A stretch of 64,000 nt of DNA. It comes from Minisyncoccota bacterium. Lineage in GTDB: Bacteria > Patescibacteriota > Minisyncoccia > Phycocordibacterales > UBA9973. This document shows positions 4,091 through 23,107 of this stretch, piece after piece. Under the pieces are notes generated by a model, which was not told the origin of the DNA, ran no database searches, and worked only from the letters and a program-made list of their open reading frames with translations. The position numbers and the translations under genes were made by a program. The stretch spans positions 6,858 to 70,857 of the forward strand of contig JBAYKO010000003.1 of the NCBI GenBank assembly GCA_041664605.1, written 5' to 3'. Each line of letters begins with the position of its first letter. The stretch's first letter is position 1.

Positions 4091-4113
4091 AGACTAAATC
4101 TATGTTTTTAAAT

Positions 4114-5900: not shown

Positions 5901-5978
5901 GAATATTTTTTTGTCGTCACAAAAAAATTTCTCGACCCCGGCTCGGCTTTTTGTCTACTGACAAAATATGCCTGTGCC

Positions 5979-6038
5979 TTCCACAAACTAAAAAATCCCC
6001 AGCAGTGGGGATTTTTTTACGTTTGTGGACCTTATTGG
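5979..6038. repeat. ~60-nt structured repeat copy B (CCACAA..hairpin AAAATCCCCagcagtGGGGATTTT..TTGTGG)
   Basis: Direct repeat of 5840-5900. Confidence 0.55.
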
Positions 6039-6244
6039 ATTAAACTGGAACCAAGTAGTTGCCGAATTGTATCAATGGCACCTAGTAATGGAGGCAGTTA
6101 AGCCATATAAAGCACTTTAAAAGGTTTGATAATAGTAACTATCGCTATATGGTTCCCTTATCGTGTCACTGGGAGCTTACATTGATCGTTACCGGCTATT
6201 ATAGACCTTATATGCAGAATGAGCTAGTAATGTACAATACTCCG

Positions 6245-6403
6245 CTAAGCATAATTTATTTTATTCTGGAATTTCCAGACTGCATTCATATAAGTAACAA
6301 GTGCCGTAAGCTCGTCTCGGGCACGGGCTTTGTCTACTGGATGGCCGAATTCTTCTAGATATACAGCCATATATTTTTCTATCTGTTCTTCACTTATTTG
6401 CAT
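6245..6403 (-). CDS. possible small ORF (52 aa), hypothetical
   Basis: ATG at 6403, stop at 6245. Sits at the start of the GC-elevated island. Below the ORF-track length cutoff, so weakly supported. Confidence 0.25.
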   Translation of the reverse strand: MQISEEQIEKYMAVYLEEFGHPVDKARARDELTALVTYMNAVWKFQNKINYA

Positions 6404-7112
6404 ATTCTATAAAAGACGGGAGTGTTTTATATTTTCCAAAGTTTTCACCAGTATTTGCATTAGTACCGGAAAGATACATACTAGTAATTGTATTAAAAAC
6501 TTCAAAAACATCATCAGAATCTTCGAAGTTTCCGCCAAAATTTGCACCAGGTTGCATATCGGTAACAAACATACATGCATCCCAAGGATTTTTACCTAAA
6601 AGTCCAGCAGCTGCCCAAGAATAAATTAATTCTGATAACATCTCATACCAGATATAATAACGCTCTATTTTTTCAAGATCAGAATCGCTTCCACTAATAG
6701 CACTTTCTATCATTTTAGAGTAATTTGAAAAGCGTATGTCTGTATTGTATTTATTTGTTGTTGATCTAATAGGGATGTTTTCAAGTAATAAAGCGTCTAA
6801 ATCAGGGAGTATTTTTTCTACTTGTATTTTTCTCTTTATCTCAACTAACCAATTGAACGCTATATTATAATCAGAAAATCCACTACTATCATATTTTATC
6901 CCTAATTTAAAATCCTCTTTACCTTGTAAAGTAAAAGAATTCAAGATAAATGGCCAGGATGCTTGTAGCGTATATAAATCATAAAACATATTTCTGACTA
7001 CCTTGCTGGAATATTCTTCTCTAGAATACTTTTTACGCCACTCCAAAAGAACGCTGTATAGTTTAGATAAAATTTCATCTTGCAATAATAAGGTTTCATT
7101 TTTATTTTCCAT
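6390..7112 (-). CDS. hypothetical protein (240 aa)
   Basis: Long ORF with no recognised motif; lies inside the higher-GC island. Confidence 0.5.
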   Translation of the reverse strand: MENKNETLLLQDEILSKLYSVLLEWRKKYSREEYSSKVVRNMFYDLYTLQASWPFILNSFTLQGKEDFKLGIKYDSSGFSDYNIAFNWLVEIKRKIQVEKILPDLDALLLENIPIRSTTNKYNTDIRFSNYSKMIESAISGSDSDLEKIERYYIWYEMLSELIYSWAAAGLLGKNPWDACMFVTDMQPGANFGGNFEDSDDVFEVFNTITSMYLSGTNANTGENFGKYKTLPSFIEYANK

Positions 7113-7120
7113 ATAAGATA

Positions 7121-8023
7121 TTATTTATTACTTCTTACAAGCAGGGCTCGAATACCTACTAATGTTCGTTCCGGTATAATAAAGGAACCGAGAAAGCTAC
7201 TTTTATCCTGATTGTCGTCTATATATCCTCCTCCTGAGACCATCCTCCCGCTCAGTCCTTGCCGGCTGATCATTCTTTCTACTATCTTTTCCGCCCCTTG
7301 ATTTGGAGTAGCAACGCCAACATAGTTCTGCGTTGAAAATCCTATCAATTTGTAAGCTGACAGGTTTTTCAAAAAAGTGTTGTATTCTATTTTGAATTTC
7401 CTCACATCATCACTTTCGCTAGCATTGCCAAATCCGATAAGATATGAGGGGTCATACATTACCCATCGGTACTTGGACGAGTTTTCTGCTAGAGCACAGA
7501 TATTGCCTGTATTTTCATATAGAGTGTTCGTTTTAGTGGTAAAGTCTGTTCTTAAATCATTAAGCACTTTCTTTTCTCCTAAGCCATTTAGTGTTTTAGC
7601 TGTGGCACAAAATGTCTTAAAAGACACTAATGTAGGGCTGGCTAGGAATGTGTCTATGGTTGCGATTGATTGACTATAGTCAGCTTTAGGGAATCCACCA
7701 GGTTGTCTACCAATAGAAGTCTCTTGGGATAGAGAGATACTAAAATCAACTAGTGGATTAAAAACAGGAGAAGGATTACCAGTGACAGAAGCAGGTTTAT
7801 TTTGACCCTCTGATTTTTCCTTTAATTCTATAACCTGTTTTTTCAGATCTTTGATTTCTTTATCGTTCGTAGCTGTAGGGACAGGAGTAGAGATTTGAAC
7901 TGTCGGTGTCTCTACCGCCTTTTTATGAAACCACGAAAATGGGTTCCACCATGAGGCTAGGGCAACAGATGGGATGATTAGAAAACTCAAAACAATTATT
8001 ATTGGAAGTTGTATTTTTTTCAT
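7121..8023 (-). CDS. hypothetical secreted protein (signal peptide)
   Basis: N-terminus MKKIQLPIIIVLSFLIIPSVALASWW is typical of a Sec signal peptide. Confidence 0.55.
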   Translation of the reverse strand: MKKIQLPIIIVLSFLIIPSVALASWWNPFSWFHKKAVETPTVQISTPVPTATNDKEIKDLKKQVIELKEKSEGQNKPASVTGNPSPVFNPLVDFSISLSQETSIGRQPGGFPKADYSQSIATIDTFLASPTLVSFKTFCATAKTLNGLGEKKVLNDLRTDFTTKTNTLYENTGNICALAENSSKYRWVMYDPSYLIGFGNASESDDVRKFKIEYNTFLKNLSAYKLIGFSTQNYVGVATPNQGAEKIVERMISRQGLSGRMVSGGGYIDDNQDKSSFLGSFIIPERTLVGIRALLVRSNK

Positions 8024-8262
8024 GGTGATATCTTCTGTTGATCAGTGATAAGTCCCATGAGTAGGCAACAAAAAACCCGCAACATAGGTAGAGACCGAAA
8101 TCTCTCGTGCAGTTTCCCACACGGCGTATAAGGCGACCCTATATTACGGGGTTGTTTATGCCTTATACGACTCACTTTCACCATGTCGGCACAAGACCGA
8201 TTTAGGCTACTGCTTTTATTAACTTGTATGATTATATTACCAAATAAGGACCAAAATAAAAA

Positions 8263-8299
8263 GGGGTTAGTAATTACCGTAATGGTAACCACTAACCCC
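8263..8299 (-). terminator. rho-independent terminator hairpin (GGGGTTAGT..ACTAACCCC) followed by a T-run on the minus strand
   Basis: 9-bp outer stem with an inner ttacc/ggtaa stem. Immediately downstream of the 8305-8538 ORF. Confidence 0.6.
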
Positions 8300-8304
8300 T
8301 TCTA

Positions 8305-8538
8305 TTACGACCACTTTCCCATTGAATACTGATACAAGGCAAAATCCGCATCATGAAATGTGAGGTCGTCCAACTCCATGAGCCTGAGCTCTCGTTCGTT
8401 TCCTTCGAGATTTTGGTAGATAAGGGTGATTAATTCCTTCTTTTGCTTAGGAGATATCATTTGGACCTCTGGCGGATATTTCAGCGGAAAGTAGCTCCGT
8501 GCCGAATCGCCACAGCCGACAGTAATTGTGTTTGTCAT
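8305..8538 (-). CDS. hypothetical protein (77 aa)
   Basis: ORF only. Confidence 0.4.
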   Translation of the reverse strand: MTNTITVGCGDSARSYFPLKYPPEVQMISPKQKKELITLIYQNLEGNERELRLMELDDLTFHDADFALYQYSMGKWS

Positions 8539-8559
8539 AGATATGTAGTTGGTTGATAA

Positions 8560-9111
8560 TTACTTCTTCACAAAGGACTGGATTTTTTCAGATGCTTCGT
8601 CCTTGGTCAGCATGTTGATCTGTGATTCCCAATATTTTCTCTTTTGTTCATCGACCACATTTACTTTGATGAGCTTCTGCAGGTACGACTTCTGGGCATC
8701 GGTGGCAGGTTCAGTGGCACGATCCGCCTCTTTGACTGGAATGTCGACATCTTTCTGCTCGTTTGGCTGGAGGTATAGGGCATCGAGCATTTTAGTGGAT
8801 CTTACTATTGCATCCACTATTGAGGCACAGTAGGCATAGCGAGTACTGCGTTCTATGTACTTGTTCAGTCTGTTCAATACGGCACTGCCTCTGCCAATTC
8901 CTAGAGTCTCAGTACCTCTTTTGAGGGTGCAGATAAAGGCAACGAAGTTAGGGACATGTTTGAATTGAGCAACTGTAGCAGTGTCTTCCTCGACTTGGAC
9001 CGTCAGATTGAATGTACCGATGTTCTTTTCTACTTCCTCCTGTATAGGGCTCAGACGGACCTGTTTTGCCCTATATGGTGATGTTATGTGCGGTTTGTAT
9101 GTGTCGTTCAT
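8560..9111 (-). CDS. hypothetical protein (183 aa), last gene of a 3-gene operon
   Basis: Start overlaps the stop of the upstream 60-aa gene by 4 nt. Confidence 0.5.
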   Translation of the reverse strand: MNDTYKPHITSPYRAKQVRLSPIQEEVEKNIGTFNLTVQVEEDTATVAQFKHVPNFVAFICTLKRGTETLGIGRGSAVLNRLNKYIERSTRYAYCASIVDAIVRSTKMLDALYLQPNEQKDVDIPVKEADRATEPATDAQKSYLQKLIKVNVVDEQKRKYWESQINMLTKDEASEKIQSFVKK

Positions 9112-9290
9112 ATGGTTTTGGTTACTTTAGTGATAATAATTTGATTTGACAGGTATTCGATCACTGCTTTGTCGGAAACAGAGAATCCGGCATTCTTTAG
9201 AAAGTTATTTGATATGACAATCTTTGGTAAGACAGTATCCGTATACTTTCTGGGGTGATTCATGTAACCAATTTGGATTTCTCTTTTCAT
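9108..9290 (-). CDS. AbrB/SymE-like swapped-hairpin small protein (60 aa)
   Basis: HPRKYTDTVLPKIVISNNFLKNAGFSVSDKAVIEY..IIITKV resembles the SpoVT_AbrB / SymE-toxin pattern (P.I.L.G.WL..GF..GD.V.V...G.I.I). Confidence 0.5.
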   Translation of the reverse strand: MKREIQIGYMNHPRKYTDTVLPKIVISNNFLKNAGFSVSDKAVIEYLSNQIIITKVTKTI

Positions 9291-9610
9291 ACAGATTTTT
9301 TATGATCAACCGGCTCTATTTGACGATAATAGAAAAGAAACACTGGACGACGAAACCGTTTTAGGACATTACCGTTGGCATCCTTTGTTTCCACATAAGT
9401 GATCGACTCAATGGCTTTTTCACCTTTACGAACTTTAAACCCTAATTTCAGCCACGAATTGAATGTTCGCATATTGTGATAACAGTCTAGGTTACGGAGT
9501 TCTGACTTGCCATACTTCGCAATAACCTGTTCCTCGACCATTGACTTCGTTTCTTCTGATCCTGTATAGGCGGACACTGGACCAGAGAGTATTTCATTAA
9601 TATTTTTCAT
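9287..9610 (-). CDS. small protein with an ArdC-N-like (DUF1738-like) ssDNA-binding motif
   Basis: MRTFNSWLKLGFKVRKGEKAI resembles the ArdC N-terminal motif (W.TF.QA..LG..VRKGEK) as recalled. The protein is shorter than a full ArdC-N domain. Confidence 0.4.
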   Translation of the reverse strand: MKNINEILSGPVSAYTGSEETKSMVEEQVIAKYGKSELRNLDCYHNMRTFNSWLKLGFKVRKGEKAIESITYVETKDANGNVLKRFRRPVFLFYYRQIEPVDHKKSV

Positions 9611-9922
9611 CGATAAATAATAATGGGTTAATAATATAGCTCAGTGACTAGCTGAGCTGAAAGAGACAAGCTCTGCAGTTCTTATCTCTCAAAGAAATAG
9701 TTTTCTTGTGGCTGAGTGCGACTGATAGTTATAGTAGGTAGTAGTGACGGTGATTGTAATAGTAACTGCAATGTAATGGCTTCGGTAATAACAGAGGGTG
9801 GGGAGTGGTTTTAGGGTCCCATATAGGCGTCGGTAAGACACTGTGGGTATGGAAGGAAGCTGTCGCCGGAGCATTTGCCCAATATTCGGCCATTGGCGTG
9901 GTACTAATGTTAAGATTAATTC

Positions 9923-10567
9923 ATGCCTAATAATTTTGTGGAAGAAAGCTATGTCCTCGACACGCACTCTATCCTAAATGACCTAAAACGAATCAGAGAG
10001 GGCGAAACCGTAGACGGGATGATCACCATTCATAACGAAACAAAAGGGATCCAGTTGCATTATTGGAGCCTTGATAAGCATGGCGAAAAGTATATTGTCC
10101 TCAGTCTGCTTAATGTCGAACCACAGGAGATCGCCCTACAGTCCTTCCCCTTGAAATATGGCGATAGGAGCTTCTATACCTGCCCTAGTTGCTTAAAACG
10201 GTGCAATAAGCTGTATGTGCGTTCCGATGAGTGGACCGGCTTTAAATGCGTTAGATGCCAAGGATTGCGGTATCGGCTGACCTCTCTTAATTTGTATTCC
10301 AGAATAGGGCGAATGGCGTACCGGACCGATCAGCTAGACAAGTTCTTTAATAATGGGAAAAAGACGCCAAGGATCTTCTATCGTGGACAGGAAACGAAGC
10401 CGTTTATTGCATATTCAAAAAAGATGTGGAAACTAGGCATGCAAGACAAAGTACAATACGGTTTTAAATTAATTTCAGAAATTAAAAATGCATCTCAGAG
10501 ATTTTCGGCGATGTCTAATGATTTTGGTAAAAGTGGGAACCTAGCTGGTCGGCGGACCAATTTGTAA
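9923..10567 (+). CDS. hypothetical protein with a CxxC..CxxC zinc-ribbon (214 aa)
   Basis: CPSCLKRC..CVRCQ motif pair; no other motif recognised. Confidence 0.5.
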   Translation: MPNNFVEESYVLDTHSILNDLKRIREGETVDGMITIHNETKGIQLHYWSLDKHGEKYIVLSLLNVEPQEIALQSFPLKYGDRSFYTCPSCLKRCNKLYVRSDEWTGFKCVRCQGLRYRLTSLNLYSRIGRMAYRTDQLDKFFNNGKKTPRIFYRGQETKPFIAYSKKMWKLGMQDKVQYGFKLISEIKNASQRFSAMSNDFGKSGNLAGRRTNL

Positions 10568-10650
10568 TATTTTTGGAGTGTTTTCTAGTTCAAGAATAGG
10601 TGGGCCTGAAAAAATTCAGCATAAATTTTTAGACTTTTCTGTTTACTAAA

Positions 10651-11676
10651 TTATCTTGTCCATGCAATATAGTATTCAAAACGGACATGTGTTTTATCTG
10701 GAGACGAATTTATTCTGGGAATTTCAAATTGAATTACTGACCTTACATCTCCTGCAAATGGTTCTGCGTGAATATTGCATAGATGTGCCATAAGGGTTTC
10801 AAAAGATGTCTGTAATCTTTCAAGTGTATTGGCCATAAACTTTGATATTAACATTTCATGAAGAGGAGTTTTGGGGTCTATGTGTGATAGTATCGGTGGC
10901 CTTACATGACCTTCTTTATTTAAAGAGTAATCTTGTATATCAAGCTCTGCACCTGTAGTAGTATGTTCAATAGCATTACGTAGACTGCGTATGAGTTTTA
11001 ACCATGATACAAGTCCTCCAGCAAATTTAGTACTTGGGTCCGTTGGTCCTTTTTCCTTTTCAAACTTTTCTTGAAGTTGCTCCGCCCAAATTTTCCCTCG
11101 CTTCTTATTATTCTTCGTAATATCAGGGTAAAACAACTGTGCCATTTCAATCAGATGTAAAATTGCGTAATCTGAATTATTTATAAACTGTTTTGTCCTT
11201 TGTTCTAGCTTATGTATGGTAGGAAGATGAAGTGACTGGTCTTCCTCGAGTTTACCTTTGAATGACAAATTTGCCTTGTCTTCTTCGGTAATATAGTCAT
11301 TCGCAAGTTCGTGTAGTGCTGTTATTTCTTTAAGGAAAGCGAGTCCAATATTTAAACCCTTTTTGCAGTCAATCGTACTAGGCAGTCCTTGCTCTCCAAA
11401 TAAGGCTTGTGCTTGAAGAAGTGTCCTGCCAACAAATAGCTCATCTGAACCATACGAAAGAATTTTCTGCTGACTTTGTTTAGGTATTGCTGAATTAGTT
11501 CTTTCTGGATCAACAGAATCAGCAAGAATAGGAGTATAAATACCTTTTCTTGTTACAACCAGCAAAGAATCACCAGTATTTATCATGGCGGAAATACCTA
11601 GGTCTTCTTTGTCTCCAATTTTGATCCATCCTCCTTCATTACGATATGCAAACGGATCTTTATTTTCTGTTGTCAT
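10651..11676 (-). CDS. 341-aa partner protein of the ABC ATPase; carries an RNxxxH (HEPN-like) motif
   Basis: Start lies 2 nt after the ATPase stop. Motif LIRSLRNAIEHTTTG fits R[NDH]xxxH. Confidence 0.55.
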   Translation of the reverse strand: MTTENKDPFAYRNEGGWIKIGDKEDLGISAMINTGDSLLVVTRKGIYTPILADSVDPERTNSAIPKQSQQKILSYGSDELFVGRTLLQAQALFGEQGLPSTIDCKKGLNIGLAFLKEITALHELANDYITEEDKANLSFKGKLEEDQSLHLPTIHKLEQRTKQFINNSDYAILHLIEMAQLFYPDITKNNKKRGKIWAEQLQEKFEKEKGPTDPSTKFAGGLVSWLKLIRSLRNAIEHTTTGAELDIQDYSLNKEGHVRPPILSHIDPKTPLHEMLISKFMANTLERLQTSFETLMAHLCNIHAEPFAGDVRSVIQFEIPRINSSPDKTHVRFEYYIAWTR

Positions 11677-11677
11677 T

Positions 11678-14266
11678 TTATGTTATTAAATTTTTAACTT
11701 CTTGAATATCTTTTTTTAATTTTTCAATATTATCCGGCATGGCATGCTGTATCATTTCGTTTGATTGATCATGAGCATCTATATACCGACTAAATTCCTC
11801 GTGGAGTTCCTTTGCTTTTTCAAGCTTTGATTTGTTAAGGGTTGCTCTAGGTATATTACGCATCTGAATTTGCTCGGACCATCTTGTAACAACTTTCCCA
11901 AATATCTTTTCTTCCACGGCCTTTTCTATAGCTTTTCTTAAGTTACTGTAGGCGGTTCTAATACCATCTCTTTTACTCTCACCGCTTAAACTTGAAAGAG
12001 AAGTGAACATCCCATCAACCTTTTGAACTTGTGCATTAAAGTTAATAGATCCAGCATAATCATTTTCAGTTACTACACCAGCATCGATATCATTTTTCTC
12101 GACTTTATGAAAGGCTGCTTTTATACTATCTACTTCATGATTTTCCTTTTCAACTTGTTCGTGTAAATAGTTAGCAAACATCAAATCATGAGTGAAAACA
12201 ATGACTTGTCGTGATTCAGATTCCTTGACAATTCTTTTGGCGATTTTTTCTTTTCTGTCATGGTCAAAACTGGTAGCAGGATCGTCAAATATGACAGGGG
12301 TCTTTTCACCTTGCATTGCCAATTCAGCAAAAAAATCAGAGAGTGCAACTGCCTTTTGTTCTCCTTCGCTTAAAAACTGATTAATATGGTCCATCCCGCT
12401 TAAGCTTTTCTCTCTCATTTGCGAACCATATTCACCTCGAAAATTCAAGTTTACATTTGGTGCATCGAGACTTGCGACTTCAGTGTTGAATTGCCGTTTA
12501 AATGAATCTGACACTAATTCCTTCCATGCTTTCATCCCGAGCTCTGTTATAGGTCTGGTATTAAATTTAACCGCAAGAGAGCTTGCTTTTGCTATCCATT
12601 GATTAATTCCGATGTATTTTTCTACATGTCTTTTATATTTTGAAAATTTCTGAATATCTTTCATTTCAACCTCTGCCAGATTCAACTCTACTGAACGACG
12701 GTTAAAATTTCGCTGTGCTTCATTAAGCTGTTTTATATCGTTTTCAATTTTCGCTTTCACTAATCCAGTACTGGTTATAAGACCACTGATATTCAACGGT
12801 TTCAGTTTACCTGCTTTTTTCGTGTTCAAGCATCCAATAACCTGCTGGATTAAAGCATCCGCATTATCCATGGCGTCAAATGAAGAATGAGCTAGTTTTT
12901 TCGTAAGTATTTTTACGAAGTCGTTTTTTTTATATGGAAAATTATTACTAAATGAAATATCTTCCAAATTTGAAAGTGCTTCATCAAGCTCATTCTCTAT
13001 GTCCTCGAAATCATTTGACTCCTCTTCTTCGAAGAGCTTCCTGTAGAGTTGTATGAGTTTGGTCGCTGTCTTGCTAAGCTTTTGCTGACAATAGATACAA
13101 TTATCAGCCTCCTCGGGATAATTTTCATGATAGGCAATATCAGTATACGATTCTCCTGCTTCGATGAATTTTTCCCATTCATCCGATGCCATTTCCGGAA
13201 TTTTATAATCATCCAGTGTTTTTCCTTTCTTTTCCGTAAATTTCTTCTTGCTTATGTTGAATTTTTTTATCAATTGTAAATAAGTGCGAACACTCGCTGG
13301 CGAAGTCTCTGTTTTAATTTCTTCCAATTTTTCCTGCAGGGCAGTCACTTTCTGTAATCTTGTTTGTAGATTTTCAAATTGCAGGTCCATGTTTTGTAAG
13401 CTCTTGGACTCTTTGATGTTCGCTAACAGTGCTTCCTTGGCAGACTGACCCCACTGAGGAAGTTTATTTAAGTCTGCAACTTTTGTTGAAGGACCAATAC
13501 TATTAATAAATTTTCCTATTGTAGTTCCACTATTGAAAATACCTTCAAGTGGCGGTTTGTCGTCTTCTGCTTTCTGTATATGGTTTGTCATTCGCTGCTG
13601 TAAACCAGTCAATGCACGTGAAGCAGATTGGAATAATTCAAAACCATATGGTTGATAGGAAAAATCGAGTCCTTCGGTTAAGTAGATTGGAATACATTCT
13701 CCATCAAAAATACTCATTCGATTGAATGGGGTTAATGTATTATGGCCATCCCACATAACTGTTCGATCCGTACCATTATTAAACACAATCTTTACCTTAC
13801 ACTCATTCTTTTTTTTTGAGTTATTTATATTTTGCCAAATATCTTCCTGCGTTCTCGATGCACTGATTCTCTTCAAAATACGGACAAAGCCTGATTTACC
13901 ACTTCCATTTTTACCATAAATTACAGTGAGTCGTGAGTGGAATGATAGTGTTGCCCCTTTGACTAGTGCATTCACGCCATCCTCATGTACTAAATTCTTA
14001 AGTTCAAATCCATTGTTAGCAGTCAAAGGTCTAGCAATTACCGGAGTAGGGGTTTTAATGTCGGTACTTTTTTCTTTGGCATCACTCAGTCCGTGTGTAA
14101 TCAAAAAATCTTCGTATATTGTGTCTAAAAACGTATTGTCAGGAACGGCACGGATGGAAATGATCCGATCCAGTAACGGACTCATCCATTGTTCACGATC
14201 TTGAGCCCCAAATTCCTTTAGGTAGTCGTCAGCTTTAGTTTTTGGAATAGGAGTAACTTCTGACAT
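11678..14266 (-). CDS. large ABC-type ATPase with a coiled-coil insert and central CxxC zinc hook (RloC/Rad50-like), plus a ~160-aa C-terminal extension
   Basis: Walker A GKNGSGKSG (~aa 118). CIYC at ~aa 388, midway through the coiled coil. ABC signature LSEGEQ, Walker B VIFDDP and H-loop VIVFTHD at ~aa 640-700. C-terminal tail contains SRYIDAH (Rx4H). Confidence 0.8.
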   Translation of the reverse strand: MSEVTPIPKTKADDYLKEFGAQDREQWMSPLLDRIISIRAVPDNTFLDTIYEDFLITHGLSDAKEKSTDIKTPTPVIARPLTANNGFELKNLVHEDGVNALVKGATLSFHSRLTVIYGKNGSGKSGFVRILKRISASRTQEDIWQNINNSKKKNECKVKIVFNNGTDRTVMWDGHNTLTPFNRMSIFDGECIPIYLTEGLDFSYQPYGFELFQSASRALTGLQQRMTNHIQKAEDDKPPLEGIFNSGTTIGKFINSIGPSTKVADLNKLPQWGQSAKEALLANIKESKSLQNMDLQFENLQTRLQKVTALQEKLEEIKTETSPASVRTYLQLIKKFNISKKKFTEKKGKTLDDYKIPEMASDEWEKFIEAGESYTDIAYHENYPEEADNCIYCQQKLSKTATKLIQLYRKLFEEEESNDFEDIENELDEALSNLEDISFSNNFPYKKNDFVKILTKKLAHSSFDAMDNADALIQQVIGCLNTKKAGKLKPLNISGLITSTGLVKAKIENDIKQLNEAQRNFNRRSVELNLAEVEMKDIQKFSKYKRHVEKYIGINQWIAKASSLAVKFNTRPITELGMKAWKELVSDSFKRQFNTEVASLDAPNVNLNFRGEYGSQMREKSLSGMDHINQFLSEGEQKAVALSDFFAELAMQGEKTPVIFDDPATSFDHDRKEKIAKRIVKESESRQVIVFTHDLMFANYLHEQVEKENHEVDSIKAAFHKVEKNDIDAGVVTENDYAGSINFNAQVQKVDGMFTSLSSLSGESKRDGIRTAYSNLRKAIEKAVEEKIFGKVVTRWSEQIQMRNIPRATLNKSKLEKAKELHEEFSRYIDAHDQSNEMIQHAMPDNIEKLKKDIQEVKNLIT

Positions 14267-14356
14267 ATATTTTTATTCCTCCCAGAGCTTGGCTAAGGTG
14301 GCTTTAGTTTTCTGTTCGTAAATCTCGATCAGTTTTTTGTTGCCTATTTTCATATA

Positions 14357-15436: not shown

Positions 15437-16328
15437 AATGATTTTCTAACGCCTCAATTATTTTTTTTGCATAATCCTGTATTGCATAAATTGCCACACT
15501 GTTGCCTAACTGCTTCATGGCCTGGCTTTCTGTAACAGGAAATATAAAATCTTCAGGAAAGCCCTGCATTTTTTTCCCTTCTTTTGAAGTAATTCTTTTT
15601 ACTTTTCCGTTCACCAAATAGCTGTCCCAATTTCGTCTGTCGGTAATATTGGACCCCTTACCACCAACTCTAAGAGTAAAACCAACTTCTTTATTTACCT
15701 TTGCTCCATCAAAGACATCGGACATGGTAAATTTTAAAGGTCTTTTTTGTGGAAATTCAAAAGGTATTTTTTTGTTTTTAAAACCAATCATAAACAAACG
15801 GGGGCGGTTCTGTGGCAGGCCGTGCTCCGATGCTTTTACAATATTAAAATGAAGAGAATATCCCAAATCTTTAGTCAAAACATTACTAATTACTTCAAAT
15901 GTTTTTCCATTATCGTGAGCAAGTAAACCCCTGACATTTTCCAAAAAGAATGCTTTTGGTTTTTTTACACGAATAATTTCTGCAATGTTATAAAACAAGG
16001 TCCCACGTGTATCATTAAAACCTTTCTTGAAACCAGCCTGACTAAATGGCTGACACGGAAAGCCTCCAGTTAAAATATCAAAATTGGGTATTTTTTTTGG
16101 ATCGATTTTTGTAATATCTCCAACAAAATTTCCACTAGAAAATAATTCGGGGTCAATTTTTTCAAAATTTGTCTGGTATGTATTTCTTGCATGAGAATCC
16201 CATTCTGACGAAAAAACGCACTTGGCACCAACATTATTAAAAGCTATATGAAAACCTCCAATTCCTGCGAATAGATCAATAAATGTAAATTTTTTCTTTT
16301 TCATTTTAATATTTGCCATATATAACAA
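15429..16328 (-). CDS. DNA (cytosine-5)-methyltransferase
   Basis: Motif I DLFAGIGGF, motif IV GFPCQPFS, motif VI FLENVRGL, motif VIII QNRPRLF, motif X GNSVAI. Confidence 0.9.
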   Translation of the reverse strand: MLYMANIKMKKKKFTFIDLFAGIGGFHIAFNNVGAKCVFSSEWDSHARNTYQTNFEKIDPELFSSGNFVGDITKIDPKKIPNFDILTGGFPCQPFSQAGFKKGFNDTRGTLFYNIAEIIRVKKPKAFFLENVRGLLAHDNGKTFEVISNVLTKDLGYSLHFNIVKASEHGLPQNRPRLFMIGFKNKKIPFEFPQKRPLKFTMSDVFDGAKVNKEVGFTLRVGGKGSNITDRRNWDSYLVNGKVKRITSKEGKKMQGFPEDFIFPVTESQAMKQLGNSVAIYAIQDYAKKIIEALENHYD

Positions 16329-16366
16329 AAATATAGCATTTTAAGGCTTTAAAATCAATCTGATAC

Positions 16367-16397
16367 TTGACAGGAAAATGGATTTTTTTGATATAAT
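16367..16397 (+). promoter_or_regulatory. sigma70-like promoter with extended -10 (TTGACA-N19-TGaTATAAT)
   Basis: Lies 10 nt upstream of the 16407 ATG. The spacer is slightly long; the TG extended -10 compensates. Confidence 0.45.
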
Positions 16398-16406
16398 GAC
16401 TCGGTC

Positions 16407-17372
16407 ATGGACAGCATCAAAATACCAGATACGGGAGGACACGAAGGAACACAAAATCAGTGTTTTATTGTGCTTGATAAAAGTGGCAATGAACTTGTGG
16501 GGTGTATAAAAGAACTAACTTGGCTTTTTCAGCTTTTATTAAAAAAGGGAGACGGAGTTTATACGGATGGAGTCACAACGGCAGTCAAAGTAAGCACTCT
16601 CTTGGCGGGGCCTTTCTTCAAAGATAAAAACACAATACAAACAGATGTATGTACTCTAGTAATGCCAGTAATCGCAGATAAGGGCTTTCTTAGAAAATAT
16701 GACATGACAAAGTATCAGCCACACTACGAATACAATGGGGATTCTTTTGTTCAGGATGGCTCGGTCTTTTTTACTGACTTTACAGACGATTTTTTAATAG
16801 CATACATGGAAGACCGGCTTGGCATAAAAACTGGGCCTGGAATAAATGCTAATCAGAAAAGTAAAGTCATTTTACAGAAAACAAAGAAAAAGCGGTTACA
16901 GCTTCCGGACCTTCCGAACGATCTCAAGTGGGAAGAAATAACAATAAGGTTTCTAAATGGTGGTGAAGTACAAATCACGGCGAAAGGACTGGTTTATCAG
17001 GTAAGCCATGAACTAATGGGCTTTCAGGATGAAAAAACCAAGAAGCCTAACTTTCAGTGGAATTTGTTGAAACTACTTTCACTAAAGGGCGGTTACTTGA
17101 ATTGGAGTAACAACAGGGAGCTAGACATAAAAACAAGAGATCGGGTAAAAAAACAAAAACAGGGGCTGTCTGAGAGGTTAAAAGTATATTTTCATTCCGT
17201 TGAGGGCGACCCATTTTTTAACTACAGAACGGAAGATGGTTATAAAATCAGAATACAACTCATACCGGAACAAGGTAGCGATATTCAAGATACCATTGAA
17301 GCAATCAGTAATACCATGGATTATTACGACGAAGATAATGATGTAAACATCGGAGACTATTCCAAGGAATAA
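16407..17372 (+). CDS. hypothetical protein (321 aa), cargo gene
   Basis: Has its own promoter and terminator; no motif recognised. Confidence 0.5.
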   Translation: MDSIKIPDTGGHEGTQNQCFIVLDKSGNELVGCIKELTWLFQLLLKKGDGVYTDGVTTAVKVSTLLAGPFFKDKNTIQTDVCTLVMPVIADKGFLRKYDMTKYQPHYEYNGDSFVQDGSVFFTDFTDDFLIAYMEDRLGIKTGPGINANQKSKVILQKTKKKRLQLPDLPNDLKWEEITIRFLNGGEVQITAKGLVYQVSHELMGFQDEKTKKPNFQWNLLKLLSLKGGYLNWSNNRELDIKTRDRVKKQKQGLSERLKVYFHSVEGDPFFNYRTEDGYKIRIQLIPEQGSDIQDTIEAISNTMDYYDEDNDVNIGDYSKE

Positions 17373-17430
17373 GCACCGTTTTGAACGACCAGTGAATTCA
17401 CCCAAAACTAAATAAAAAGATATCGCTAAC

Positions 17431-17456
17431 GGCCCTTAATTTATAAGGGCTTTTTT
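17431..17456 (+). terminator. rho-independent terminator (GGCCCTTAAtttaTAAGGGC + TTTTTT)
   Basis: Hairpin followed by a T-run. Confidence 0.65.
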
Positions 17457-17553
17457 GCTGCCAATTTTTCACGGTGATTTTTCGCCACTAGTAAATATAG
17501 GACGGTCAGTCGAAACCAACACCTATATTTATTAACTAACATAAACAAATCGT

Positions 17554-17760
17554 ATGAAAGCAACGAAAGAAAAAGGAGGGTCTATGACGAAATCAAAAAA
17601 CATAGTGCCGTTGGAGGAGGCTAGAGAAACTTTTTTCAGAAGCATCAGAAATGCCATGAAGATATTCGAAATTTCTCTTTTGAAAAATCGTCTCGCAAGT
17701 TCAAAAAAAGGAAGAAATGTTGTTGATGCACTCATGGCTGATTGTTATAAGGAAAAATAA
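17554..17760 (+). CDS. hypothetical small basic protein (68 aa)
   Basis: ORF preceded by an inverted repeat AAATATAGG..CCTATATTT at ~17490-17530. Confidence 0.4.
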   Translation: MKATKEKGGSMTKSKNIVPLEEARETFFRSIRNAMKIFEISLLKNRLASSKKGRNVVDALMADCYKEK

Positions 17761-17918
17761 TGATTTCAGTGGATGATGCAAAAAGAATACTACAGGACGA
17801 CTCTATGTCCGACCAAGAAGTTGAGACAGCTATAAGCGACCTACAATTACTAGCAGAATTAATATTCGATCATTGGACCAATGAAAAGGCCAAAGAAAGA
17901 AAAAATTATAATAAGTAA
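17760..17918 (+). CDS. possible small ORF (52 aa), overlapping-stop coupled (TAATG)
   Basis: MISVDDAKRILQDD..; below the track cutoff. Confidence 0.3.
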   Translation: MISVDDAKRILQDDSMSDQEVETAISDLQLLAELIFDHWTNEKAKERKNYNK

Positions 17919-17944
17919 CGCTGTATATCAGCACAAAAAAATAT

Positions 17945-18313
17945 ATGAAAAATAATATTAAAGAATCTAAAAAAAATCTTATAAAAATGGTAAAAGGTGT
18001 GCAGATGGACCAAACAATTGATGCCGTGCAAGGACTAGTTAAGGCATATGGTTTTAAAATAGCAGCTTCATTAATAAGAATGACTTTAGAAGCTACATAT
18101 GAAGTTGATCAGAAGAATGTAAAAGAGGAAAAAAGTAAAAATAGGAAAGAAATGATAACGGTAGAATTTAAAGATGGTAAAAAAAATATATGTATCGCCT
18201 CAGAAAGACGCCCAGGAGAAACGAAGAATCAACACGAAGAAAGGATCGAATTAATGAAAAAAATGATGATAGACGCTTCTATATCTAATAAATATGGTGG
18301 CCTTTGTATCTAG
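17945..18313 (+). CDS. hypothetical protein (122 aa)
   Basis: ORF only; overlaps the start of the prim-pol gene. Confidence 0.4.
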   Translation: MKNNIKESKKNLIKMVKGVQMDQTIDAVQGLVKAYGFKIAASLIRMTLEATYEVDQKNVKEEKSKNRKEMITVEFKDGKKNICIASERRPGETKNQHEERIELMKKMMIDASISNKYGGLCI

Positions 18314-20141
18314 AAAATACATGGAAAATAATATTACAAATAAAAAACTGGAAGCGGCGTTAAGATATACAGCAATGGGATGGGTTATTGTGCCAGCGAT
18401 AGGAAAACATCCTTGTGTGAAATGGAAAAAATTCCAGAAAGTTAAGCCAACCCAGGATCAAATAAAAGAATTCTGGACAAAGTTTCCTAATGCTAAAATA
18501 GCAGTCATTACCGGTCCACTGTCGAGTATTGTGGTATTCGATATTGACACGAAACATAATCGTAGGCCGGAAGAATTTGATTTACCTGCCACAGTATCGT
18601 CACGGACGACTAACGGTGGTTGGCATTACTTCTTCAAGCATCCAGGATATAAAGTTAGAAATAGTAATGGGACACTGTTTGGGCCAGGAATTGATATTAA
18701 GGGAGATTCCGGAATTGCCATATTACCTTCGTCAGATACTGGTCCAGACAAGGCGTATACATGGGCTGTAGAGTCTACTGGTGACAACATGGCACCGATG
18801 CCGAAATGGCTGGAAGATAGAATCTCGAGTGCCCAGAGTACTCCCACCCTGCCCGCTATGATTACTAGCAACGAGGTTGTACTTACTAATAAAATTGGAG
18901 AATCAAGCCTGAATGAAATACCGGAAGGGACTCGCAATGACAAGCTTACAAAGTTAACAGGCACACTATTAGCCAAGTTTAAGCCTAATGAGTGGAATTC
19001 TCTGGTGTGGCCTATTGTTACTTCTTTTAACACAGCCAACTGTAAACCACCATTGCCACTATCCGAAGTAAAAAGTATATTTGATTCTATTTCTGGATCC
19101 GAGATGTCAAAACCATCTATGGTTAATACTGGACCGATTGAAATTCTGACAGCAAAGGAACTCAAAGAACTACCATTCACGGATCCTAAATGGGTTGTTG
19201 ACGGCTTGTTCGAAGCCGGCACGGTAAATATGATTGGAGCCGCTTATAGTAACTTCAAAAGTATGATCAGTATGCATGTGGCGGATTGCTTGATTACCGG
19301 CAAACCTGTATTCAACAAGTTCGAAGTTGTTAAGCAGTCTGTATGGGTAATTAATGAGGAAGATCCTAAACGCCATGTACAGGAAAGAATGAATATCATA
19401 AATAGCGACTGGGGTGAGTTACCAATTTACTTCTCGATCAAAAAAGGATTAAAGCTGAGCGATGATATCGTCGGACAGATTATCGTACGAAGTAAAGCAC
19501 TCGGCATAGGTTTTGTAATTTTTGACTCGTTGAGGAGTGTGCATGACAAGGAGGAAAACGCTTCAGGGGAAATGCAGGCTGTAATGGATTGGCTCGGCAA
19601 GATCGCAGATGCAGGTATAACTGTCCTATTCACACACCATAATCGAAAGAGAAGCGGTTTTGGTAAGGCAAACGAGGGTGAAGAAGCACGAGGTAGTAGC
19701 GTTATAACCAATGCATCACATAGCTATATATCATCTAATGCAAAGAAAGAAAATGGCATGGACTATGCGATTATCATGCAACATAAACAAAAATCGGCGA
19801 AAAAATTAGATCCGTTTCGAATACGCATCAACCTACTACCTGACTGCGACAACGATGAACGCTTTATTTATGAGGGTGAAGAAATAAATAACAGCCTAGT
19901 TGTGTTAAAAGCAAAAATTATAGGAGCACTGGAATCATCCGAGAAATGGCTATTTATGAATGATTTCACAGCATTGAAGTTCGGTGGTAAAAAAACCATT
20001 AAAAAGGCCTTAGACGAATTAGTGTTGGAAGAAAGAATTGAATGTAAATTAGGTGAAGAAATTATTAGGGAGGAATTAGATGCATCAATTGCTGTGCCTC
20101 GCCCCAATGCCAAATTTTATTTTTTGGCCAATGAGGAATAG
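18294..20141 (+). CDS. mobile-element replication protein: bifunctional primase-polymerase (Prim-Pol) N-domain + RecA-like / AAA_25-type NTPase C-domain
   Basis: Prim-Pol motifs VVFDIDTKH and GGWHYFF. C-terminal domain shows a RepA/DnaB-like pattern (VIFDSLRSV.., LFTHHNRK). The Walker A appears degenerate (IGAAYSNFKS). Confidence 0.75.
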   Translation: MVAFVSRKYMENNITNKKLEAALRYTAMGWVIVPAIGKHPCVKWKKFQKVKPTQDQIKEFWTKFPNAKIAVITGPLSSIVVFDIDTKHNRRPEEFDLPATVSSRTTNGGWHYFFKHPGYKVRNSNGTLFGPGIDIKGDSGIAILPSSDTGPDKAYTWAVESTGDNMAPMPKWLEDRISSAQSTPTLPAMITSNEVVLTNKIGESSLNEIPEGTRNDKLTKLTGTLLAKFKPNEWNSLVWPIVTSFNTANCKPPLPLSEVKSIFDSISGSEMSKPSMVNTGPIEILTAKELKELPFTDPKWVVDGLFEAGTVNMIGAAYSNFKSMISMHVADCLITGKPVFNKFEVVKQSVWVINEEDPKRHVQERMNIINSDWGELPIYFSIKKGLKLSDDIVGQIIVRSKALGIGFVIFDSLRSVHDKEENASGEMQAVMDWLGKIADAGITVLFTHHNRKRSGFGKANEGEEARGSSVITNASHSYISSNAKKENGMDYAIIMQHKQKSAKKLDPFRIRINLLPDCDNDERFIYEGEEINNSLVVLKAKIIGALESSEKWLFMNDFTALKFGGKKTIKKALDELVLEERIECKLGEEIIREELDASIAVPRPNAKFYFLANEE

Positions 20142-20173
20142 GAGAGTAAAAAAACAACATCTTCTGCTTACAT

Positions 20174-20242
20174 GCTTGGTATTCTCTATAATAGAATACC
20201 AAGCACTAAGCAAAATGCGAGAAGATAGCTTGCTTGGTATTC
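20174..20242. promoter_or_regulatory. three copies of GCTTGGTATTC (an inverted pair forming a 12-bp hairpin with loop CTATAAT, plus a third direct copy) upstream of the recombinase gene
   Basis: Hairpin at 20174-20204 and third copy at 20232-20242. Candidate operator / promoter region or terminator of the prim-pol gene. Confidence 0.4.
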
Positions 20243-20258
20243 CTGTGTTTGACTAGGC

Positions 20259-21902
20259 ATGCAAAGCAATGTATTAACAGTAGTAAAAATTAAATTAAGT
20301 TGTATTATGAAAAATATGAAGACTGGAATTATATATACAAGAGTAAGTTCAGACGAACAGATCAAAGGTACCTCCCTCGGTGAACAGGAGGAATTTTGTC
20401 GTAAATATTGTGCCGAAAAGGATATAACCATAGTGCGTGAGGTATTCCGTGAAGAAGGAGCTTCTGCCAAGAGTACCGATCGGGCAGTGTTTTTGAGTGC
20501 TATTGAATACTGTCGAAAAAACAAGGTAGACTTTTTTGTCGTTTGGAAGTGTGATCGCTTTGCCAGAAATTCAACCGACCATTACGCAGTCAAAAGCACC
20601 TTATTAAAATACGGCACCCGGCTTGACTCTGTAACAGAGCAGATCGGAGACGATCCAACTGGTAAACTAATGGAGGGTATGATGGCTATTATTGGCGAAT
20701 TTGATAACGATATACGAAAACAGCGTTGCAGTGGCGGAATGCTTGGCAGACTGAAACAAGGAATATGGCCATGGAAACCACCTATTGGTTATATCTGTGA
20801 AAATAACAAAAAGCAGGACAGGAAGAAAGAACAGCCGGACCCGATTAACCCGGTTATATTTCCTATCATTCAGCGTGGCTTAAAAGAATTCGTGGCTGGA
20901 CAATACACCATGACGCAATTAGCAGAAGCATATAATCGCTATGGGCTTGTTGCTCCAAATGGTAAAAAAATAAACGCAAAATTAGTAGACAGATTGTTTA
21001 CACATCATCTGGCCTATTATGCTGGTATATTGAATAATCCATTTTTCCCCAAGAACGGCGAAGCTTCATATGAGGGTAAGCATACTCCCATGATCACCAA
21101 GGAAGAATACAGGGCGATCTTAATGATCCGAGCAGGTAAAAGGGTGCAGACAATGAAACGGAGTCGCCACAACCCAATATTTCCCCTCAAAGGTAGCGTA
21201 TTTTGCTCTAAATGCGACAAGAGGCTAACTGGAAGCTGTTCCCGTGGGAATGGCGGGGTTTATGCCTTCTACCACTGCTATAACGTCTCATGTGACCTCC
21301 GTGGCAAGACAGTCCAAAAGAAAATCATTGAAGACGCCTTTATTAAATTTCTGGAGTCTGTTACTCCTAATGAAAAGTTTTTAAAACTGTTCGAGGAGAT
21401 AGTCATACAGCACTGGACCAACAAAGGCCATGTATTCGAAGTACAGACTAATAAATATGCAAAAGAGATAGCCGAATTGAATCAAAAGAAAAAGAGGATC
21501 TATGAAATGAGAGAGGACGGCGAATACACCAAGGAACAATGCACAGATAGATTGAACGAAATAGAAGACAAAATAGTCGCATTGGATATTTCTTTAAACG
21601 AGGCAAAAATAGAGCAGTTTGATGTTGAAGCTACAGTGAAATATGCAGTAAGGACCATTACTGATTTACCAAAACTTTGGTTTGATCTTGCACCGGAATT
21701 ACGCCCACGGTTCCAAAAGATGGTATTTCCCGAGGGAGTTCTCTATTCCAAAGAAGAAAGTTTTCGAACCAACAAATTGGCTTATATCTACGAGCTAAAA
21801 AAGAAAAAAGGAGCTCAAAGAACTCCTTTTTTCAACATAGTGGACCCTAGCGGATTCGAACCGCTGACCTCCTCATTGCAAATGAGGCGCTCTACCAGCT
21901 AA
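20259..21902 (+). CDS. large serine recombinase (integrase)
   Basis: Resolvase catalytic region GIIYTRVSSDEQ. Recombinase domain and Cys-rich zinc-ribbon (CSKCDKR..CSRGNGGVYAFYHC). Spacing of the catalytic Ser suggests the true start is nearer 20307 (MKNMKTGIIY). The 3' end overlaps tRNA-Ala. Confidence 0.85.
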   Translation: MQSNVLTVVKIKLSCIMKNMKTGIIYTRVSSDEQIKGTSLGEQEEFCRKYCAEKDITIVREVFREEGASAKSTDRAVFLSAIEYCRKNKVDFFVVWKCDRFARNSTDHYAVKSTLLKYGTRLDSVTEQIGDDPTGKLMEGMMAIIGEFDNDIRKQRCSGGMLGRLKQGIWPWKPPIGYICENNKKQDRKKEQPDPINPVIFPIIQRGLKEFVAGQYTMTQLAEAYNRYGLVAPNGKKINAKLVDRLFTHHLAYYAGILNNPFFPKNGEASYEGKHTPMITKEEYRAILMIRAGKRVQTMKRSRHNPIFPLKGSVFCSKCDKRLTGSCSRGNGGVYAFYHCYNVSCDLRGKTVQKKIIEDAFIKFLESVTPNEKFLKLFEEIVIQHWTNKGHVFEVQTNKYAKEIAELNQKKKRIYEMREDGEYTKEQCTDRLNEIEDKIVALDISLNEAKIEQFDVEATVKYAVRTITDLPKLWFDLAPELRPRFQKMVFPEGVLYSKEESFRTNKLAYIYELKKKKGAQRTPFFNIVDPSGFEPLTSSLQMRRSTS

Positions 21903-21913
21903 GCTAAGGGCCC
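21841..21913 (-). tRNA. tRNA-Ala (anticodon UGC)
   Basis: Manual cloverleaf fold. Acceptor GGGCCCT/AGGGTCC with the Ala G3:U70 pair. Anticodon stem CCTCA/TGAGG with loop TTTGCAA. T-loop TTCGAAT. Length 73 nt with no encoded CCA. Confidence 0.9.
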
Positions 21914-21932
21914 ATTATATTATATTTTTACA

Positions 21933-21983
21933 AAATTGGGCTTTACTCCTGTTGCTTCCACGAAGCGCTACAACTAAGCTACA
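21933..21983 (-). pseudogene. tRNA-like 5' fragment (acceptor + D-arm only) in tandem upstream of tRNA-Ala
   Basis: GGGTCTGTAGCTTAGTTGTAGCGC resembles a tRNA 5' half (TAGCTTAG identical to the tRNA-Ala D-arm) but has no anticodon or T arm. Confidence 0.35.
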
Positions 21984-23080: not shown

Positions 23081-23107
23081 ATACTTCTATTGTATCGCAA
23101 GAAAAAA

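Follow-up and report, generated by a model that had tools for sequence, protein, structure and literature searches.

How does a tRNA gene come to share its 3' end with the gene of a recombinase? The question arises in a stretch of 64,000 nucleotides from a Minisyncoccota bacterium (assembly GCA_041664605.1, contig JBAYKO010000003.1; hereafter the window), where the open reading frame (ORF) of a large serine recombinase (LSR) runs into tRNA-Ala(UGC). A preliminary description had proposed an integrative element at this tRNA. We find that window 6025-21846 is very probably a site-specific integrative element, seated at the 3' end of tRNA-Ala(UGC) in the chromosome of Candidatus Paceibacterota, a group of the candidate phyla radiation (CPR). 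Because the recombinase gene crosses the right junction of the element, the attachment site of its free form (attP) lies inside that gene, at an invariant Val528 codon.

The element, its junctions and the empty site

To obtain the locus with and without the element, we used exact-protein matches of the flanking genes, which led to the 156-kb source contig in JGI 3300037810 and to three contigs of a second assembly, ENA ERZ27249449. One of the three, k141_732001, is the empty site. In it, window 21847-33080 is fused directly to 5891-6031 with 0 mismatches (11,234 + 141 nt), and the gene order runs UvrB-UvrA-UvrC-Ddl-tRNA-Ala and then straight into the sequence left of the island. The second, k141_730903, is the island itself, identical to the window across 15.3 kb and spanning the left junction, while the third, k141_390143 (Fic, SWIB, LexA and others), has as its first base the G of GGTCCAC. 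The empty and the occupied path both terminate in one 141-mer that starts exactly at this core, and this sharing marks the true branch point expected of an assembly graph with k=141. Since empty and occupied contigs are both found in ERZ27249449, a single sample contains both alleles. The JGI, ENA and two Logan assemblies agree at 100% identity over the island (as fragments in Logan). An empty site in an otherwise identical chromosome thus supports a recombinase-driven integrative element at tRNA-Ala(UGC), as had been proposed.

The junctions delimit an element of 15,815 bp and have only the 7-bp core GTGGACC in common, which stands at both ends (Table 1). The extent of 6045-21913 given at first was right in location; its start lies about 15-20 nt inside the element, and its end takes in the host tRNA. 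The predicted attP junction reads ...TTTTTTCAACATAGTGGACCTTATTGGATTAAACTGGAACC... and the junction of the host attachment site (attB) ...TTTTTTTACGTTTGTGGACCCTAGCGGATTCGAACC.... Scanning GTDB genomes with Ddl, in search of an empty site in related organisms, found no relative.

The composition of the island also deviates from that of its flanks. G+C content is 37.5% in the island vs 31.8% elsewhere in the window (Mann-Whitney test on 2-kb windows, p = 4e-13), and the tetranucleotide distance is higher as well (p = 6e-6), with the strongest deviation at both island ends and the central restriction-modification/ATPase segment nearer to the host. The CPR assignment of the host is supported by sequence similarity: its UvrB is 100% identical to an NCBI protein from a 'Candidatus Paceibacterota bacterium' metagenome-assembled genome (MAG), and the next UvrB relatives, at 73-74% identity, come from Paceibacterota and Nomurabacteria where the source is named. 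The locus is a clean case of mobile DNA in CPR bacteria, with both alleles, exact junctions and a clear split into backbone and cargo, in organisms with tiny genomes and few described mobile elements.

Integration keeps the target tRNA whole: tRNA-Ala is identical in both alleles, and the junction falls at its last bases. This is also a property of the tRNA islands that carry tyrosine integrases (Islander-type islands, tycheposons, and islands like P4 or the phage-inducible chromosomal islands, PICI), which likewise sit at a tRNA 3' end, leave the tRNA functional and combine an integrase and a primase/helicase replicon with defence or adaptive cargo in 4-17 kb. The element differs from them in integrase chemistry, having a serine recombinase, and in the duplicated tRNA segment, which is 7 bp here and not the sizeable displaced fragment of tens of bases that is typical there.

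Downstream of the tRNA, integration would also exchange one hairpin for another. The hairpin at 21833-21803, which stands within the recombinase coding sequence and 6 nt past the tRNA 3' end, is scored as an intrinsic terminator, and it probably replaces the native tRNA terminator (5990-6017). On the host side, a hairpin-terminator module occurs twice in tandem at window 5840-6028, the copies being 70% identical and 132 nt apart; the true core, TTTGTGGACC, closes the second copy, and a look-alike, TTTGTGGTCAC (about 5890-5900), closes the first. The pair may represent a secondary or duplicated attachment site, or be what earlier events left behind. On the other side of the tRNA, the minus strand of 21935-21990 (GGGTCTGTAGCTTAGTTGTAGCGCTTCGTGGAAGC...), between tRNA-Ala and ddl and present in the empty allele too, looks by eye like the 5' half of a tRNA; it was rejected as one, since Rfam recognised no tRNA there at thresholds up to E<=10. 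Within this stretch, TTCGTGGAAGCAACAGG is similar to TTGTGGAAGGCACAGG in the 5840-6028 modules.

The recombinase gene and its exchanged tail

The recombinase is recognisable along its length. Its homologues (453 at E<=1e-10) begin at an MK..IIYTRVSS motif that corresponds to M20 (20316) of the window protein. The catalytic domain matches Resolvase PF00239 (E 4.7e-29) and contains the YTRVSS motif, of which Y26, R28, V29 and S30 are invariant in our alignment of the family, A1. Two further domains fall just under their cut-offs, Recombinase PF07508 at 20.0 vs 21.1 bits and Zn_ribbon_recom PF13408 at 25.0 vs 25.3; both are recorded for many of the homologues, and the zinc-ribbon cysteines C316, C319, C340 and C345 are invariant in A1. 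An AlphaFold model of one homologue (P0089) has helices 372-419 and 425-468 at the position of the coiled coil. Matches in the PDB are the C-terminal domains of the A118 and SPbeta integrases, and alignments to solved LSRs stop at about residue 441.

At its 3' end the ORF enters the tRNA by 63 nt, so that the last 20 codons overlap tRNA sequence and codon V528 (21840-21842) lies on the tRNA 3' end. The preliminary description had rightly seen that the recombinase gene ends inside tRNA-Ala; it had missed the cause, namely that attP lies inside the recombinase gene, and that this is a property of the family. The other part of the gene is found at the far end of the element. Directly behind the left core and in frame with it, at 6032-6120, stand 29 codons that complete the gene, in the only such motif in the window. 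Integration has thus exchanged the 29 C-terminal codons for 18 codons read antisense through the tRNA. Joining the right and left junctions yields ...NIVDLIGLNWNQVVAELYQWHLVMEAVKPYKAL followed by a stop codon, and the tail predicted for the excised form, VDLIGLNWNQVVAELYQWHLV, resembles the tails of uninterrupted homologues. The excised form would have 558 aa, 527 of which are contiguous in the integrated form.

Both kinds of tail recur among the relatives. We scored the closest 120 of the 453 homologues. In about 93 the tail is antisense tRNA after an invariant Val (usually Val-Asp), for example VDPSGFEPLTSSLQMRRSTN, in which GFEP corresponds to the T-loop and LQM includes the Ala anticodon; about 19 have a conserved tail of the form xxWNQ[IV][IV]xELxxWxxL. 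Proteins with the intact tail have tRNA-tailed relatives that are up to 82% identical, with alignments that end at the junction. The two types are therefore interleaved and do not represent lineages.

The intact tail bears marks of selection on its peptide. In 27 tails, 12 orphan remnants among them, W0, N1, E6, L7, W10 and L13 are kept as the third codon positions vary; Leu+7 is encoded by six codons, and third-position entropy is high in the orphan remnants too. A residue pattern that is kept under synonymous variation argues for selection on an amphipathic helix, not on DNA alone. AlphaFold predicts, at low confidence, a helix at 531-551 in an intact-tail homologue. Upon inspection for free circles, the intact-tail homologues P0092, P0085 and P0089 were all found in linear contigs with other genes.

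The window recombinase has no exact match on record: no gene was called for it in the JGI contig, and the ENA contig ends within it. In the JGI contig, Ga0376277_0000758, the gene table is empty between ddl and the PrimPol gene, presumably because the recombinase ORF overlaps the tRNA. A gene hidden from annotation in this way may help explain why the family has gone unnoticed.

The arrangement can be compared with that of the archaeal SSV-type integrases (SSV1, pTN3, pT26-2). These too have attP inside the integrase gene and are directed at tRNA genes, and integration partitions the gene that excision restores (PMC8371274). As in these 'suicidal' integrases, the ORF crosses the right attachment site (attR), and the remnant stands in frame at the left one (attL). 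The archaeal enzymes are, however, tyrosine recombinases (Phage_integr_3) that are split into two inactive halves, whereas the present one is a serine recombinase of which the last 29 codons are exchanged. A review states that self-disrupting recombinases are known only in archaea (PMC8371274), a statement that the present family contradicts.

Attachment sites across a tRNA-targeting family

A scan of one genome per GTDB species gave 181 relatives of the recombinase, and we examined the loci of the best 80, which are mostly Patescibacteria MAGs of many classes; counts of loci below refer to these. In 46 of them the Val codon coincides exactly with the 3' end of an antisense tRNA gene, at the sequence TGGTG, which is A73-CCA in reverse complement. 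The target is tRNA-Ala in 28 loci (UGC 12, GGC 9, CGC 7), tRNA-Glu in 7, tRNA-Met in 4, tRNA-Lys and tRNA-Ile in 2 each, and tRNA-Leu, tRNA-Tyr and tRNA-Arg in 1 each. Tails that resemble tRNA are also present in several of 17 loci classed as unresolved. In 11 loci an orphan tail was found 4-11 kb upstream, behind a short core common with the tRNA end, and further islands could be delimited in this manner; the remnant ORF is intact in 12/12 delimited islands. Judged by these sequences, the integrase belongs to a large, undescribed tRNA-targeting family with at least eight tRNA types as targets. We found no relevant publication on serine recombinases of Patescibacteria or CPR bacteria in the open-access literature, and an earlier description elsewhere is possible; tRNA targets go unmentioned in the large LSR survey by Durrant et al.

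We reconstructed attP and attB for the window and for ten other islands; with the Val codon as anchor, the sequences reveal how the two sites may be read. In attB, the T-loop sequence GAACC of the tRNA lies at +18 to +22 in 11/11. In attP, positions +22 to +27 are occupied by GGAACC, from the Trp-Asn codons, in 11/11, which places its GAACC 5 bp further out. (Cores sought as the longest common substring were discarded, with spurious TGGAACC matches in several islands, in favour of this alignment.) For the Listeria integrase, Rutherford et al. (2013) described a zinc-ribbon domain (ZD) motif that is 5 bp nearer the centre in attB than in attP, a shift that sets the geometry of the coiled coil and directionality (PMC3783163). 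The GAACC at +18 in attB and +23 in attP equals this known 5-bp shift (PMC3783163). The P and B arms of the window both consist of an A-run, a hairpin and a T-run. The shared cores always contain the GT of the Val codon, so crossover is probably at A73-C74, with the whole tRNA on the host side. If the integrases of this family recognise the T-loop and the acceptor end, which are conserved in every organism, they are possible starting points for integrases with natural landing sites.

The enzyme thus has much in common with the phage-type LSRs (A118/LI, Bxb1, phiC31, SPbeta SprA): resolvase catalytic, recombinase and zinc-ribbon domains with a coiled-coil insertion, short attachment sites with few shared bases, and a ZD motif 5 bp further out in attP (PMC3783163). 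Unlike them, it targets a tRNA 3' end and not a protein-coding gene, has attP within its own coding sequence, carries at its C-terminus an additional, conserved helix that matches no solved LSR structure in sequence, and has a host range centred on CPR bacteria.

A small protein accompanies the recombinase. Iterating a hidden Markov model (HMM) over the ORFs of the fetched loci, from a starting likeness to a small ORF in locus L065, gathered a family around the 52-aa protein upstream of PrimPol, with the consensus MLS[IV]E..K.LL.DP.LSD.E.EEIRD.F..LAE[IV]IFE.W. A member lies upstream of the LSR gene and on the same strand in 59/80 loci, and 72/72 matches are on the LSR strand; the median distance is 1.7 kb, with a gap of at most 162 nt in 16 loci. 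Of the 21 loci that lack a member, 14 have under 2.3 kb of upstream sequence. The family has no Pfam or PHROGs counterpart, and among 1.84 billion representatives it comprises 34 clusters (E<=1e-3) of 42-108 aa plus one protein of 438 aa. Within the element, it is the 52-aa protein that best qualifies as a candidate directionality or accessory factor.

Read in the light of the established mechanism of serine integrases, these observations suggest how the element recombines. The LSR would pair attP with attB and exchange strands at the core dinucleotide, most likely the GT of the Val codon, that is, A73-C74. Its zinc-ribbon domain would recognise the T-loop GAACC on the host arm; on the element arm it would recognise GGAACC at the Trp-Asn codons, set 5 bp further out. 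Integration would leave the tRNA whole, with a new terminator hairpin supplied from within the LSR gene, and would swap the C-terminal amphipathic helix of the LSR for a peptide of antisense tRNA. Excision, for which the co-occurring 52-aa protein may be the directionality or accessory factor, would rebuild the full LSR gene, and the PrimPol/AAA_25 protein would replicate the excised circle.

A number of points weigh against this account. The evidence consists of metagenome assemblies throughout, and the four island-bearing samples are possibly not independent. An IUPAC pattern for attP, attB, attL and attR, which matches the window twice, had 0 matches in JGI metagenome contigs, a collection that does not hold the source sample. 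The motif common to the two sites was found in the P'/B' arms only, with none in the P/B arms. The tail helix is modelled at a predicted local distance difference test (pLDDT) score of about 50-58, with no confident docking on the monomer. Some intact-tail homologues lie within long chromosomal contigs (L049, L056, L069), so an intact tail is not always the sign of a free element. Finally, that the recombinase is active, where it crosses over and what the 52-aa protein does are all matters of prediction.

Does the exchange of tails matter to the element? A far-reaching answer, which we offer tentatively and consider somewhat unlikely as a whole, is that the tail swap is a built-in switch, that the family is a natural set of integrases reading T-loop and acceptor, and that integron-like arrays of mini-cassettes have grown at its sites, as in L065. 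If so, the full-length LSR with its helix would drive integration and the tRNA-tailed form would have altered activity; the latter might answer to the 52-aa protein for excision, or be silenced with the help of convergent tRNA transcription. This would be a bacterial serine-recombinase counterpart of the archaeal 'suicidal' integrases, and the gene-spanning attP with its tightly linked 52-aa protein would offer a handle on how directionality is set. An altered C-terminus has a parallel in the cluster G/N/P mycobacteriophages, where Broussard et al. (2013) reportedly showed that attP lies in the 3' end of a phage gene and that integration alters the C-terminus of the product and thereby its activity or stability. 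In those phages the gene encodes the repressor, and a tyrosine recombinase serves as integrase; here it is the serine recombinase itself that is altered.

It is also quite possible, if short of probable, that the swap is functionally neutral: attP would merely overlap the LSR 3' end, the helix would be useful but dispensable, and both forms would act alike. The change affects 29 of 558 residues and leaves the catalytic and DNA-binding domains intact, and the modelled tail helix has no confident docking position. Moreover, the TGGAAC that encodes Trp-Asn is also required as a DNA motif, so part of the conservation acts at the DNA level. However, conservation (E+6, L+7, W+10, L+13) reaches past the 25-bp half-site and is accompanied by synonymous variation, which points to selection on the peptide, and the remnant ORF has stayed intact in all 12 delimited islands.

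The family includes one conspicuous array. In L065 (identical to L066; GenBank PLNZ01000273.1 / PLGI01000152.1), at 10007-16600, an intact-tail recombinase homologue is followed by four tandem cassettes of 1.0-1.45 kb. Each contains a single variable gene of 95-225 aa in opposite orientation, the LSR-associated small protein in one copy, and about 170 bp of repeat in which the recombinase tail is encoded anew. The array looks like serial insertion of mini-elements into the in-gene attachment site, an integron-like accretion.

Backbone, cargo and the route of transfer

What else does the element carry, and how might it travel? Domain searches agree with the gene list drawn up earlier for the region left of the recombinase: a Prim-Pol/RecA-like protein, small ORFs, a 5-methylcytosine restriction-modification (RM) system, an ATPase and an ArdC-N block (Table 1). 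We separated backbone from cargo by tblastn of the island proteins against the related loci. Relatives of PrimPol adjoin the LSR gene in 12 loci, which places it in the backbone.

Table 1. Features of the element and of its attachment site, in window coordinates
Feature	Coordinates	Strand	Basis
attL core GTGGACC (left junction)	6025-6031		identical 7-mer at both ends; contig k141_390143 begins exactly here
attR core GTGGACC (right junction)	21840-21846		identical 7-mer; empty-allele comparison
tRNA-Ala(UGC), target gene	21840-21913	-	ARAGORN; Rfam 71.4 bits; intact in occupied and empty alleles
B arm of attachment site, extended hairpin/terminator 3' of tRNA-Ala in empty allele	5980-6029		inverted repeats I3/I7
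Terminator-like hairpin and T-run inside recombinase coding sequence	21803-21833	-	consensus scan, 14-pair stem
LSR, integrated form	20259-21902	+	547 aa from first ATG; Pfam; PHROGs integrase E 6e-73
Displaced LSR 3' end: VD + LIGLNWNQVVAELYQWHLVMEAVKPYKAL + stop, in frame with core	6025-6120	+	translation; conserved tail of uninterrupted homologues
Replication protein Prim-Pol + PriCT_1 + AAA_25 (RecA-like NTPase)	18294-20141	+	Pfam; PHROGs DNA primase/polymerase
122-aa protein, overlaps PrimPol start	17945-18313	+	called gene; no family match
52-aa protein, LSR-associated family	17760-17918	+	iterated HMM
68-aa protein, weakly PrtN/excisionase-like	17554-17760	+	PF11112 E 9e-4, below cut-off
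321-aa protein	16407-17372	+	no family match; C-terminal part in L043, L038, L042 (tblastn)
C-5 cytosine DNA methyltransferase	15429-16328	-	PF00145 E 4.1e-83
HpaII-family restriction endonuclease	14357-15436	-	PF09561 E 3.8e-77, full length
ATPase AAA_13/SMC_N, 862 aa, one CxxC (hook-like) motif	11678-14266	-	PADLOC PDC-S06; Pfam AAA_13, SMC_N, AAA_21
341-aa protein, downstream of ATPase, 1-nt gap	10651-11676	-	no family match
Zinc-ribbon protein, 214 aa, CPSC...CVRC	9923-10567	+	sequence; relatives L083, L026
ArdC-N-like protein, 107 aa, backbone	9287-9610	-	PF08401 23.2 bits vs 22.6 cut-off
SymE/AbrB-like protein, 60 aa, 4-nt overlap with next gene	9108-9290	-	PF08845 E 9.8e-4, below cut-off
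183-aa protein, weak DUF3072-like C-terminus, backbone	8560-9111	-	Pfam E 6.8e-5, below cut-off
77-aa ORF	8305-8538	-	called gene; no family match
300-aa protein, signal-peptide-like N-terminus, backbone	7121-8023	-	sequence; L015 homologue 39% identical
240-aa protein, element-specific	6390-7112	-	no Pfam/PADLOC/PHROGs/NCBIfam match; no relative in 80 loci
52-aa ORF at left end	6245-6403	-	called in JGI/ENA contigs; no family match

The block of higher G+C at the left end had been taken for cargo. On the contrary, its ArdC-N-like, 183-aa, zinc-ribbon and 300-aa genes recur with the recombinase in other CPR genomes and are therefore backbone. The ArdC-N-like gene occurs in 4 related loci and the 183-aa gene in 5, together with the former in L015, L089, L075 and L084 and apart from it in L026. 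The 300-aa protein has relatives in 2 loci, strong in L015 alone. The SymE/AbrB-like gene is found in 1 locus, and in one relative, P0292, the ArdC-N-like domain is fused to PF08845. L084 has the two backbone operons side by side and in divergent orientation; in the window, the cargo lies between them. L084 also carries two genes of separate note: at 3729-5069 (minus strand), beside the ArdC-N/183-aa module, a 446-aa FtsK/SpoIIIE protein with alpha, motor and gamma parts and no membrane part, and at 9391-9852 (plus strand), just upstream of the recombinase, a 153-aa fragment with a resolvase domain.

The 107-aa protein had also been labelled anti-restriction, a label that goes beyond what the protein contains. 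It belongs to a family of 52 homologues, mostly about 100-119 aa (range 92-119 aa), which stand alone apart from the one fusion to an AbrB/SymE-like domain. Its model (pLDDT 77) has as top PDB hit in Foldseek the ArdC of plasmid R388, 6I89/6SNA (prob 1.0, E 2e-3, template modelling score 0.41); a PDB sequence search returned nothing meaningful. The structural model supports an ArdC-N-like protein with the N-terminal fold that binds single-stranded DNA (ssDNA) in R388 ArdC; the C-terminal metalloprotease domain of the latter is absent. The ArdC-N/AbrB-like operon, a conserved part of the backbone, perhaps handles ssDNA on entry.

The remaining genes do not travel with the recombinase. The RM pair, the PDC-S06 ATPase and the 341-aa and 240-aa proteins have no comparable relative in the related loci by tblastn (PDC-S06 and the methylase gave one weak partial match each), and we take them to be variable cargo. 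The methyltransferase and RE_HpaII endonuclease genes overlap by 8 nt and form a type II RM system of the HpaII family; CCGG is not depleted in the island or in the flanks. The 862-aa ATPase matches the PDC-S06 HMMs over its full length (residues 14-860, E 1e-122 to 8e-122). The defence function of PDC-S06 is itself a candidate assignment, and this candidate-system HMM is the sole basis for the earlier label 'abortive-infection-like'; the 341-aa protein is a possible effector. By sequence, the exchangeable defence cargo consists of the HpaII-type RM system plus the PDC-S06 ATPase and its 341-aa partner.

In overall plan, an integrase, a primase-type replicase, small regulators and defence cargo at a tRNA, the element resembles by analogy tycheposons and PICI/P4-like satellites. 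Might it be a phage satellite, with excision and replication induced by a helper, packaging in helper capsids, and cargo directed against competing phages? Satellites combine an integrase and a primase in an island of 10-16 kb, as does this element of 15.8 kb with its primase/helicase-type replicase, small regulators and defence genes. In addition, some tycheposons have large serine recombinases at tRNA-associated sites (10.1101/2020.12.28.424599), and the scans of element proteins recognised no conjugation genes. Nevertheless we regard a satellite as unlikely. No capsid, terminase, or packaging or capsid-redirection family was recognised in the element proteins, eight ORFs being without annotation, and the recombinase family is nearly absent from the 2.9 million contigs of IMG/VR, with one close relative whose locus is without clear virion genes by PHROGs.

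We consider it highly unlikely that the element belongs to the integrative mobilisable or conjugative kind and passes between cells as ssDNA, the incoming strand being guarded by the ArdC-N-like protein. The fold of that protein, its conservation together with the 183-aa protein in related elements, and the FtsK/SpoIIIE-type translocase beside the ArdC-N module in L084 would fit such a route. However, the ArdC metalloprotease domain is absent, and Pfam, NCBIfam and PHROGs scans of the element proteins found no relaxase, coupling protein or type IV secretion genes. That the region is not mobile at all, being a vertically inherited variable region or an assembly chimera, can practically be dismissed: although all data are metagenomic assemblies, independent assemblies agree on island sequence and junctions, the empty site is precise with 0 mismatches in the flanks, and the junction-spanning recombinase with its tRNA-end architecture recurs in dozens of genomes.

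Returning to the integrative element proper, the same plan of small protein, replicase, recombinase and defence cargo, built from different parts, is seen in L096-L099 (Logan SRR319201xx). An intact-tail relative of the recombinase (P0085) is found there together with a DnaG-type zinc ribbon plus D5_N/DUF5906 primase-helicase, a KAP NTPase and a type III-like RM system.

The host side of the attachment site, window 1-5650, is itself rich in defence genes. It encodes a SoFic-like Fic protein (4586-5650, PADLOC SoFic E 2e-43) and a fusion of an N6-methylase with HSDR_N (1367-3316), along with LexA (3317-3952) and a SWIB-domain protein (4114-4377); according to the source contig, a specificity subunit lies just past the window start. 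Further away, window 40954-45926 is a second stretch rich in G+C, at about 38-40%, in which no recombinase was seen. It encodes two sortases (40954-41565 and 41562-42653) and two large Ice_binding-like surface proteins with SpaA-like or peptidoglycan-binding domains (42903-44702 and 44727-45926), and looks like a cell-surface locus, not an island.

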